Of a stretch of DNA of 64,000 nt, positions 36,898 through 40,272 are shown piece after piece. Every line of letters begins with the position of its first letter. Position 1 is the first letter of the stretch. The position numbers and the translations under genes are program-made. The notes beneath the pieces were generated by a model. That model was not told where the DNA came from. It made no database searches and worked only from the letters and a program-made list of their open reading frames with translations. Location of the stretch: assembly GCA_963741205.1 (NCBI GenBank), contig CAVUHW010000020.1, positions 128,001 to 192,000 on the forward strand, given 5' to 3'. The stretch is from Nitrospirota bacterium. Lineage in GTDB: Bacteria; Nitrospirota; UBA9217.

Positions 36898-38253
36898 TGA
36901 ACTACCCGCCACTGAGCCAATTACATGGTTGCAGTGGGGGTTTCACGGATCATAGAAGCATGCAGTCCCTGAGTAGTTCCCAAGGCCTGTCTTATCTGCT
37001 TCTCCCCGCGCGTGACTTCGGCCGGTTCCCGGCCTAGTGTTTCCTTCTTCCTTAGCCGCATGGCGCGTTTCCTATGCTTTACGGTGATTTCGCCAGATAC
37101 GAGCATTTCTATGCCGCGCTTCTTGATAACGAGAGACGCATTGGTATCGGCGTTTTCCGTAAAGCCACAGCTCTGGCAATCGAACACCGCCTGTGACTGG
37201 CGATTGTCCGGGTGAGTGTGCGAACACTTCGAACACTCCTGTGAGGTGCCGTGCGGCGGTATGGCGATAACGAGCTTGTTGCGTCGTGAGGCTTTGTACG
37301 TCGTAAAGAGTTTTACCTTGCCCCACGCTGATTCGAGTATGGACTTGTTGAGACCGGCCTTGGCCTTTGCCCCGTTCGGAATATACGTCCCGCCGGCCGA
37401 CTTCTTAGGTTTTGGCGCTCTGGTCATGTTCTTGACCTTGAGGTCCTCGAAGACGAACACCTCCGCGGGTGAATCCACGAGCTTGCGGCTGGCCTTATGC
37501 GCGAAATCATGCCTCACATTGGCAGCATACGCCTGGCACCGGGCTGATTTCGCTGCTGATTGCTTAAAGCGGCCGGATCCTTTGATCCGCCTCGCCAATT
37601 GCCTCTGATATCTCTTCTTCCGGGCATCCTTTTTTGCCAGACGCTCTTTTTGGATGCCGGAGAAGTCATGCACCGAGCCGTCGCTTGTTGCCAGCGGGAT
37701 TACAACCCCTCGGTCCATTCCCAGGGTAACGGTATTAAGACTCTCTGAAGACATGCCGCCGTAAAGCTCGAGAAGTTCCTGCTCGCTCAAAACTGTGCCT
37801 TGCTTCTCATAGGAGAAGGAGACATACCATTTCCCGGACTCCCGGGAAATGGTGATGGCCGCCGGAATCTCGTACTCGTCGTGAGCCTTGAACTTAAGTT
37901 CGCCCAGATCGACCGACTTTGTGCCAAGCATCAGCCGGTGCTCATATATTGTTTTGTCCTGCCGCTGTTTTGAGCCTCCAGTAGGAACGAACCTGAATAG
38001 CTCGCTGGTAATCCAGACGGACTGCCGCCCCGCCTTCTTTTTATAAGCAGGGCGACCAGCCAGTCCTGTCAGGTACCTCTTGTAGGAGCCCATGAACCTG
38101 GTTGCGCCGTTTCTTAGCACCTGTGACGGCACATCGTAGAGCTTGCTATATTGTAGAAAGTAGCTAAGCCCAATAAAAAAGGCTATACTCACTTTCTTGA
38201 TTTGGAACCAGCTGGGGAGTTGGTAAATCCAAACCATAGAAAGGAGCATAGCC

Positions 38254-39526
38254 GTGAAAAGGATTAAACCAAAAAAGACCAGAGCGGTCAATCAAAATGT
38301 TCTTATCGCCACCGTTGACGGAGGCAAGGACACTCATTACGGATATTACCGCTGTCCTGATGGCACCGACTGCAAAGCGTTCGACTTTTGGAACAATGGA
38401 CGCGGCTTTCAAGAGTTTTGGGAGCGTATCTCGTCGGCAGCCAAGAACCCATGGTCTTGAAGAAATAATCGTTGGCTTTGAATCCACCGGGCCATACATG
38501 GAACCCTTGACGCAGTTTCTGAGAAGCAAGAAGGGCGTCCGGCTGGTGCAGGTCAACCCGATGCACACGAAGCGGCTGAAGGAGCTTTCGGGCAATTCGC
38601 CGCTCAAGACCGACCGGAAGGACCCGAAGGTCATTGCAGACATCATCGAACTTGGCCATGCTCTGACCGTGGTGATCCCCGAGGGAGCCGGCGGCAGAGC
38701 TTCGAAGGCTCACTCAGGGCAAGAGAACGAACGATTGAAAGCCGTACGAGGTTGTTTAATCAGCTGCAGAGTCTCCTGGTGATCAGCTTTCCCGAGTTTT
38801 TGCAGGTGATGAAGGATGTGAAGACCGCGAGCGCCCAGCACCTTTTGCGGCATTATCCGACGCCGCAGGACATTGTGGCTCTCGGAGAATCCGCCCTGGC
38901 TGCTTTACTCCGAAAAGTCAGCCGGGGGAAGCTTAGAGAAGACCGTGCCAGAGCGCTTTTTGAGGCCGCAAGCGAATCGGTCGGCCTTAAGGATGGTCGC
39001 AGAGCAGCATGCTCCTTGAGATCGAACTGATGCTTGATACCATAGCCACCTATGAGCGTTTTATCGAAGGTTTTGAGACTGAGATGTTGCGGCATCTGGA
39101 ACAGATTCCGTACAGCCGACGTGATTCTTTCGCTTAAAGGGATCGGCACGGTCACTGCAGCGGGGCTGATCGGCGAAGTAGGAGATTTCAGCAAGTTCGC
39201 CACCATCTCCGAGGTGATGAAACTTGCCGGGCTTGATCTGTATGAAGTCAGCTCGGGGAAACACCGGGGCAAACTTCGTATCTCCAAGCGAGGCAGGCCG
39301 CTTATGCGAAAGCTTCTGTACTTCGCGGCTCTTGAGCACTGTCCGGAAGGGCGGCGTGATGCATGAGTGGTATCAGCGCGCCCTGGGCCGGGGCATGATT
39401 AAGACCAAGGCCTTGGTGGCGGTCAGCCGGAAGCTTTTGGGAATTATTTTTGCTTTGGTACGTGATCATAGTGTTTACGTAGAGAACTATGCGAAACAAA
39501 AACCGATTTTACAGGAGGCTGCTTAA
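38254..39526 (+). CDS. IS110 DEDD recombinase/transposase (several frameshifts)
   Basis: VDGGK, FESTG, VNP, KTDRKD, GIG, SSG and ISKRG motifs. Confidence 0.9.
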
Positions 39527-39543
39527 ACTAAGACGATCGTTGC

Positions 39544-39694
39544 GTGTAAGCGGGGAGATTATCGTTCGCTTCATCTAAGGCGGCTATGCCGACCTTCTCA
39601 TAAAGCCTACATAACTCCCCGCTTGCACCTTATTTCCAATAAAGCAAGATCAGGGCTCTGTAGAGACCCTTTAAACCAGAGTTGGAAAAGGTGC
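39544..39694 (+). ncRNA. Putative bridge/seek RNA (two stem-loops with internal loops)
   Basis: Stems gtgtaagcggggag/ctccccgcttgcac and gcacctt-a-tttccaa/ttggaaa-aggtgc. Loop 2 carries AGCAAG and AAACCAG, matching the donor junction. Confidence 0.7.
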
Positions 39695-40272
39695 CGCACT
39701 CAAAGATCAATATCTCTTAAAAAGCAATGCCTCTAAAAAAAGTACTTGACAAAAACAAACCAGAAACGGAGTGAGATCCTTGTCCTTAAACTGGGCGTAT
39801 TGCTGATCAATCGGCGGCTGTAGTCCGGTCAGCGACAGTGAATGATTCCGGAAAGTACGGAAATAACGCTCTTCGGCAACCTTGGCGTTGTAGATAAACC
39901 GCTGGCAGCCCATCCACTGCGCGAGAATATCGGACTGCTCCGTTGTCGGGTAGCAACGGAATTTTATGCCGCTTGAAATCGCCACATCTCTAATATAGGT
40001 GATGAATCCTGATAGTGCAACTGAATAATACGCTGTAGCCATCGGTACTATATTATAAGATTGCATATCGTTTCGTAGCACAGACAACGCACCAATCCAC
40101 ATCCAAAACAGTCCGCTTGACCCCCTCCTGACGCTTCGCCCCTAGCAGGGGGAATGCGCGGACTTTGTTCAGGATGGGCAGGCTTGAGGAGAAACTGGCG
40201 GAAGGCCTCGGCTGATTCGCACAACGTTAAAATGTTATTCGGCGCGCCCCGCCCATCGTGTATAATACCCGC

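Follow-up and report, generated by a model that had tools for sequence, protein, structure and literature searches.

We analysed a window of 64,000 nucleotides (nt) from the genome of a Nitrospirota bacterium (contig CAVUHW010000020.1, positions 128,001 to 192,000), in which a 1622-base-pair (bp) element at 38142-39763 interrupts a TnpB gene, with an AG dinucleotide at both junctions (38140-38141 and 39762-39763). All features of the element lie on the plus strand. It begins with a left end and 5' untranslated region (5' UTR) of 112 nt (38142-38253), continues with a gene for an IS110-family DEDD recombinase that is disrupted as assembled (38254-39526), and closes with a non-coding right end of 237 nt. 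The right end holds a predicted bridge RNA, composed of a stem-loop 1 with the putative target-binding loop (39548-39624) and a stem-loop 2 with the putative donor-binding loop (39625-39694), followed by a spacer (39695-39761) and the right AG core. We hold with high confidence that the element is an RNA-guided insertion sequence of the IS110 family whose guide RNA gene lies 3' of the recombinase. It is a further member of an already known group, in a clade that has been little studied.

The boundaries and the shared core are settled because uninterrupted TnpB paralogues of the source genome carry the empty site with a single AG (17 locus rows, several of which are one copy fetched twice), and because contigs from two soil-metagenome runs join 38139 to 39762, a skip of exactly 1622 bases in which 2 letters are ambiguous and could belong to either side. 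Paralogues of the same allele read CACATCGTAG-AG-AAACGG, with one AG, and the empty-site allele, given as left flank and then core, reads CATCGTAG-AG-AAACGG. Among related loci, 27 left ends and 22 right ends begin or stop at identical letters beside the AG, while their flanks are unrelated. The left ends found by BLAST start with AG followed by CTTGCTATA in 27/27 loci, and in each of the 26 loci whose left flank is visible, CTTGCT stands after AG. The right ends found in the same way stop at TTGAC[AT]-N8-CC, directly before the AG, in 22/22 loci, which places TTGAC[AT] 10 nt before the core. The left AG joins the left flank of the target to the left end, and the right AG was placed by junction comparison and the empty sites. 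The element thus shows the site-specific insertion at a shared core dinucleotide, with no true target duplication, that is a trait of the IS110 family. An earlier note on this DNA, made from the letters alone, had described an AG core at both ends of an IS110 element. The core was confirmed by the empty sites, and the family identity was borne out by PF01548 and PF02371 matches on fragments of the gene and by comparison with more than 50 related insertions. The motif positions in that note were also reproduced: CTTGCT from 38142, TTGACA at 39746-51, AGCAAG at 39643-48, AAACCAG at 39673-79, CATAAAG at 39599-605 and the flank CGTAGAG at 38135-41.

Relatives were gathered in two ways. With the recombinase of a 69% relative in the same genome (L002, contig C14) as query, 34 loci were obtained from metagenome genomes of Nitrospirota, Scalindua and other Planctomycetota, Glassbacteria, Desulfobacterota and others. 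The clade occurs mostly in metagenome genomes of Nitrospirota, of Scalindua and other Planctomycetota, and of Desulfobacterota. Metagenome contigs were also scanned with the right-end 19-mer of the window element, which returned 66 stretches. RNA guides were found by sequence patterns in 34 of these, and the left end was present too in 30 of the 34. These 30 full elements measured 1603-1720 bp, the closest being 87-89% identical to the window element. Among the 32 stretches without pattern-found guides, a covariance model of the RNA (R1) located 3 that hold the whole RNA and 8 that begin inside it at a contig end; the remaining guide-less stretches gave no R1 match and were left out of the counts. 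Element length among relatives, including L076 and L081, ranged from 1564 to 1877 bp. Inspection by eye of L002 and L006-L009 puts most of this variation in the spacer that separates the RNA from the -35 box: it measures about 45 nt in the window, about 180 nt in L002 (3045-3225) and more in L006-L009. The source genome contained one copy of the element and the 69% relative; an R1 search of this genome found these two known copies alone and no orphan bridge RNA. The best named relatives on plasmids (ISBth13, ISEc20 and a Cytobacillus gene) were only 25-34% identical, and R1 gave no match in the ISEc20 locus (L057). In one sequencing run (X3), a contig ending at 39768 joins a close right-end variant (7 differences in 126 letters) to another right flank, which shares only its first five letters (AAACG) with the window flank. 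This contig is a second insertion, by a near relative, at another site; its guides lie off the contig.

The region downstream of the recombinase gene is strongly structured. The segment 39540-39702 folds into two stem-loops with large internal loops at -63.1 kcal/mol (z -5.96), and none of 200 shuffled sequences folded as well. In an alignment of 21 distinct homologues, the consensus contained 40 pairs, with 98.5% of cells paired, and 21 of these pairs carried compensatory changes, compared with 6.1 covarying pairs in shuffles (0/500 reached the observed number). When the partners were slid by 1-3 columns, pairing dropped to 34-53% and the covarying pairs to 1-8. R1 scored 170 and 165 bits on the two plus-strand genome copies and 29 bits on the minus strand. 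This weak minus-strand score, together with many G-U pairs, places the RNA on the same strand as the recombinase gene. The earlier note had reported two stem-loops with internal loops for the 3' non-coding region, and these were upheld. No Rfam family matched the 3' region, the lone match being a chance snoRNA outside it (E 0.32), and no U-tract terminator was found on the plus strand. We predict a bridge (seek) RNA of about 150 nt, encoded downstream of the gene on the recombinase strand.

The internal loop of stem-loop 1 carries two guides. On its 5' side, positions 2-8 after GATTAYC correspond in reverse complement to letters 1-7 of the right flank; after them come C, as the core's first base on this strand, and then mainly A. 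On its 3' side, N5-AG stands directly after CCTTC, and the five letters repeat the left flank. In the window, the 5' guide is TTCGCTT (39565-39571, then the core C at 39572) and the 3' guide is CATAA (39599-39603, then AG at 39604-05). Across 21 guide pairs, the mean match on the 3' side was 4.12/6 compared with 2.17 when the flanks were permuted, and on the 5' side 4.37/7 compared with 2.66; in neither case did any of 5000 permutations reach the observed value. Addition of the metagenome elements gave 53 insertions with both guides and both flanks, or 45 after removal of identical combinations. These 45 non-redundant insertions showed a mean match of 9.78/13 compared with 6.59 in shuffles (standard deviation 0.25; 0/5000 shuffles as high), with scores from 5 to 13 and a median of 11. 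Agreement per position was 0.64-0.96 at the guide positions and 0.22 at the sixth letter out on the 3' side, which lies outside the guide because this value equals chance. Covariation of the loop guides with their targets, which the earlier note had proposed as a check, is thus clearly present in the family. Because a 7-nt guide with the first core base stands on one side and a 5-nt guide with AG on the other, loop 1 would read the target on both strands. The structured RNA, with a target loop matching the flanks and a donor loop matching the ends, agrees with the IS110 family. For loop 1, the earlier note had reported a 5/7 match of CATAAAG to CGTAGAG. The coordinates hold, although only the 3' side had been scored, and the 5' guide at 39565-71 also matches its flank at 5/7.

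Stem-loop 2 matches the two ends of the element. AGCAAG (39643-48) is complementary to CTTGCT of the left end, the donor half-site at 38142-38147, and this complementarity extends to 13 of 15 letters over 38139-53 against 39637-51. AAACCAG (39673-79) is identical to the right end plus core, where the right-end spacer carries the donor half-site AAACC at 39757-39761. Among the homologous RNAs, AAGCAAG is kept in 19/21 and ACCAG in 21/21. Because it is complementary to the left-end top strand and identical to the right end plus core, loop 2 would read the donor junction, as the earlier note had expected of AGCAAG and AAACCAG. Covariation with the donor, which that note had also looked to, has nothing to act on, as the ends do not vary.

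When the right end, AG and the left end are joined in silico, a putative promoter is reformed, as is usual in the IS110 family: TTGACA (39746-39751) in the right-end spacer is followed after 17 nt by TATATT (38147-38152), with TG at 38144-38145 and one c between them (TG-c-TATATT, 38144-52). TTGAC[AT], 17 nt and TATATT were likewise reformed in 19/19 relatives with both ends, a matter of sequence conservation, so the junction promoter with its 17-nt spacing and TG before the -10 box was correctly described in the earlier note. Circle formation and promoter activity would follow by analogy with IS621 and ISEc11, as described in PMC11208160 and PMC11187229. The 5' UTR contains a 26-nt imperfect inverted repeat (38181-38206 and 38228-38253, 73% complementary), which covers the AAGGAG ribosome site (38241-46) and the region just upstream of the GTG start. 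The arms of this hairpin, GGCTATACT...AGGAGCATAGCC, are visible in relatives too. The hairpin could hold the recombinase untranslated.

We compared the clade with the published descriptions of related systems. In these, IS1111-group elements carry the RNA in their right end, whereas most IS110-group elements carry it in the left end (PMC11208160, PMC11187229). IS1111 transposases are given as 330-350 amino acids (aa) long with clear sub-terminal repeats, and IS110-type transposases as 315-450 aa, some IS110-type elements having a 3' non-coding region (PMC11187229). The clade resembles the IS1111-type elements with a 3' seekRNA (ISEc11, ISKpn4 and ISPa11; Siddiquee et al. 2024, PMC11187229) in that the longer non-coding region and the RNA (39548-39694) lie downstream of the recombinase, a placement the earlier note had recognised. 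It further resembles them, as described there, in the promoter rebuilt at the abutted circle ends and in the lack of a true target duplication. The order of the guides is also shared, since in the seekRNAs of ISEc11, ISPa11 and ISKpn4 the guide complementary to the top strand comes first, and the one for the bottom strand follows on its 3' side (PMC11187229). Unlike the IS1111 enzymes of that description, the clade enzyme is 418-421 aa and thus falls outside their length range. Unlike the clear IS1111 sub-terminal repeats of 7-17 bp (PMC11187229), the clade has a weak match of about 10 bp resembling T[AT]TATTGYAG, between left-end positions 6-15 and the reverse complement of right-end positions 3-12, which reaches 6-9/10 in relatives and 6/10 in the window (counted by eye). 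The matching letters overlap the -10 box, so an independent constraint may act on them. A repeat search listed no terminal inverted pair, and the weak family-wide match appeared in an offset scan only. The earlier note saw no clear sub-terminal inverted repeats; the family does have this weak one, degenerate in the window copy.

The clade also shares several features with IS621 as described by Durrant et al. 2024 (PMC11208160), namely membership of the DEDD recombinase family, an RNA whose two loops serve the target and the donor respectively, a guide for each strand in either loop beside a dinucleotide core (here AG, which reads CT on the opposite strand), and a sigma-70 promoter spanning the junction of right end, core and left end. 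In contrast, IS621 has its RNA in the left end, ahead of the gene, whereas here it lies in the right end, after the gene. The IS621 enzyme is about 326-340 aa (PMC11208160) compared with about 420 aa in the clade, and the match of an intact relative (L013) to the IS621 transposase in PDB (E 5e-9) covers the C-terminal domain only. The combination of a long transposase (395-455 aa in the IS110 subgroup), a 3' non-coding region and a sub-terminal repeat that is absent or short and imperfect has been described for an exception group of IS110-type elements (PMC11187229). The clade fits this exception class by description, the text of that source naming no members. What the earlier note had regarded as an unusual mixture of a 3' RNA, no clear repeat and a recombinase of about 420 aa is therefore an already published class.

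The recombinase gene retains both domains of the family. An N-terminal DEDD/RuvC-like domain (PF01548, 2e-11) and a C-terminal IS116/IS110/IS902 domain (PF02371, 1e-20) were found on separate fragments, tblastn aligned the gene over two frames with stops, and the SSG of the G-x7-SG motif is visible in the 39052-39366 frame. The intact relative L013 scored 201.7 bits on NF033542, 'IS110 family RNA-guided transposase' (cutoff 140), and intact recombinases in related loci were 416-421 aa. As assembled, the window copy cannot make its own recombinase. Its open frames lie at 38254-38460, 38297-38782, 38752-39030, 39052-39366 and 39224-39526, and the longest within the element is 161 aa, so the intact enzyme of about 420 aa assumed in the earlier note is found in the relatives and not here. 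Compared with eight intact relatives (87-89% identity, 419-438-aa frames), the 1273-nt coding region contains six frameshifting private insertions (+1 at ~38441, ~38686, ~38720, ~39120 and ~39331, and +2 at ~39000). Two further private insertions lie outside the frame (+1 at 39525, in an A-run at the stop codon, and +1 at 39719), and no private deletion was present relative to the eight. Private substitutions numbered 8 in the 1595 columns where all eight relatives agree, and four of these fell in the RNA, three at guide positions (39570, 39600 and 39601) and one in stem-loop 2 (39687).

The gene that the element interrupts, a TnpB gene, is encoded on the minus strand. The C-terminal 405 codons of this gene occupy 36921-38139 as an open 405-aa frame, with PF07282 (4.3e-18) and PF01385 (1.3e-12) in 36921-38291, and its N-terminal part occupies 39764-40102, with PF12323 (9.1e-11) in 39707-40102. 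The gene is multicopy, each flank having 22 genome matches. It represents a TnpB-only element (IS605 OrfB / Cas12f-like) with about 17 nearly full-length copies at 87-98% identity in the 4.27-Mb assembly, on contigs C4, C15, C17, C18, C20, C26, C28, C30, C34, C47 and others. Of 12 full-length C-terminal parts, 6 have the open 405-aa frame and 6 are broken. The guides of the window element predict CATAA-AG-AAGCGAA and the actual site is CGTAG-AG-AAACGGA, which agrees at 8/12 guide positions plus the core, or 9/13 on the scale used for the family (4/6 on the 3' side and 5/7 on the 5' side). This is below the family median of 11 and within its range, as 17 of the 45 insertions score 9 or lower. 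In the source genome, 1715 of 471274 AG positions (0.36%) match the guides at 10/14 or better. Among these are 238 better sites, all unoccupied: one perfect (14/14), 2 at 13/14, 22 at 12/14 and 213 at 11/14. The perfect site lies on contig C8 around 54923, on the minus strand, inside an ordinary long open frame. About 0.03 perfect sites would be expected by chance among 471274 AG positions (by arithmetic, 12 guide positions at 1 in 4 each), so the presence of one is mildly surprising.

The sites of close relatives are of another kind. Most of them (L059-L123, e.g. L072, L087 and L123) lie inside short tandem arrays in which a unit of 8-9 nt, NCGCRRAG and in many cases a further G, occurs 2-4 times; these arrays look intergenic. 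The closest relatives carry guides of the TCGCAA/TTCGCGC type and sit in such arrays, with units such as ACCGCGA-AG-GCGCGAAGGACGCGAAGG. As the relatives stand in tandem arrays, their left and right guides would read neighbouring copies of an NCGCRRAG-like unit. Four guide positions of the window element depart from the closest relatives. Three of them (39570, 39571 and 39601) agree with the TnpB site and one (39600) does not; 39570, 39600 and 39601 are private to the window, and 39571 varies among relatives. The TnpB site itself resembles a pair of degenerate canonical repeat units. Other family guides fit the window site at 8/13 at best, and the window guide fits other sampled targets at 7/13 at best. 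The guide of the C14 copy was considered as the cause of the window insertion and was rejected, as it fits the site at 4/13. In same-genus and same-family genomes with relatives at contig ends (G013 and G021), no second site for the window guide was found; their flanks are of the canonical CGCGG/CGCAG-AG type and match the window 3' guide at 1-3/5.

Several observations weigh against an RNA-guided insertion sequence with a bridge RNA. No circle-junction joint was seen in the metagenome contigs, a search that covered contigs only and in which several segments of the element had no cover. No RNA sequencing run was found to contain the stretch, and 20 DNA runs contain shares of it of at most 0.28. 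As the ends and the donor loop are invariant, their pairing rests on complementarity and position and not on covariation. The register of the 5' guide is shifted by 1-2 nt in L006-9, L011 and L013, and several insertions score just 5-7/13, which complicates a simple picture of guide matching. As the recombinase is broken, the window copy would be expected to be inactive, unless assembly introduced the breaks. One could suppose that the 3' structure is a mere terminator or mRNA-stability element and that the protein chooses the target, in keeping with its position directly 3' of the stop codon and with the finding of no RNA run that contains it. We consider this very improbable, since the two strands of the internal loop vary in step with the left and right flanks, loop 2 agrees with each end of the element, and no U-tract terminator was found on the plus strand. 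A gene long in decay would not be expected to show eight insertions beside so few substitutions and no deletion at all, and the insertion-only pattern may reflect an assembly artefact or an insertion-biased process. There is, in our estimate, an even chance that the six frameshifts arose as consensus errors during assembly, in which case the cell would have an intact and possibly active copy. All 8 private indels are insertions; 8 private substitutions, half of them in the RNA, are far too few for a long-dead gene with 8 indels; the second family member of the source genome is likewise +1 frameshifted (L002 position 1766, its sole frameshift); and the 7 private insertions in the TnpB copy at the end of contig C47 (near 18802) show that insertion clusters occur elsewhere in the assembly. 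However, both TnpB halves beside the element (1.56 kb) and a neighbouring 480-aa frame are open, so any errors would need to be confined to this spot, well inside a large contig. Metagenome contigs at about 95% identity are without a letter at 38447, 38688 and 38717, but these cannot settle the matter because they are variants and not the source strain.

The chance is likewise even that the copy is a true pseudogene, recently inactivated by insertions and immobile unless recombinase is supplied in trans. The frame is broken six times, the genome holds a single copy beside a frameshifted 69% relative, and the perfect predicted target in the same genome is unoccupied; yet the insertion-only pattern and the near lack of private substitutions are odd for natural decay, and the RNA stems and both ends are intact. 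The window copy is probably defective or mis-assembled, and it stands at an imperfect target. Regarding that target, the earlier note had taken a weak match to suggest an off-target insertion. An off-target insertion is plausible, because one perfect and 237 other better sites are unoccupied. Few-mismatch off-target insertions have been documented for IS621 (PMC11208160). The match itself is not exceptionally weak by the standard of the family. The insertion may instead have been on-target for a mismatch-tolerant guide, or the guide may have drifted afterwards, which we regard as possible, if somewhat improbable. The score of 9/13 lies inside the family range, 0.36% of genomic AG sites match as well, no other family guide fits the site better, and three of the four departing guide positions agree with the site. 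Against this, the better sites in the 4.27-Mb assembly, from the perfect one to the 213 at 11/14, are all vacant, the target did not drift because paralogous TnpB copies show the same site, and drift of four guide positions after insertion is unlikely because private substitutions are few overall. In our reading, re-programming of the guide came first, and insertion into a near-cognate site in TnpB followed.

The following mechanism can be proposed by homology with IS621 and ISEc11. The element is ordered as a short left end, a recombinase gene of about 420 aa, a predicted bridge (seek) RNA of about 150 nt on the same strand, a short spacer and the right end. Excision would produce a circle, in which a sigma-70 promoter is restored where the right end, AG and the left end meet, and this promoter would transcribe the recombinase and then the downstream RNA. 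Loop 2 of the RNA would read the donor junction and loop 1 both strands of the target, and recombination at the shared AG would leave one AG at each junction without a true duplication.

These results bring no new principle, as bridge or seek RNAs, junction promoters and the 3' placement of the RNA have all been published. We tentatively suggest, as a reading that may well need revision, that the clade represents a distinct IS110-type architecture (a recombinase of about 420 aa, a 3' bridge RNA and no long sub-terminal repeat) that normally homes to 8-9-nt NCGCRRAG-like arrays, and that the window holds a naturally re-programmed lineage (3 of 8 private substitutions in 12 guide positions) caught at a near-cognate site in the gene of TnpB, another RNA-guided transposon nuclease, while a perfect 14-nt match is unoccupied. 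The window copy illustrates from nature both a changed guide and an insertion into an imperfect site. The clade provides a large natural set of guides and targets, with 45 non-redundant insertions and clear covariation per position, and its guide layout is simple, with 7 nt and the first core base on one side and 5 nt and AG on the other. Given this set, this layout and the intact recombinases from environmental, non-pathogenic bacteria, the clade could be mined as another programmable recombinase orthologue.

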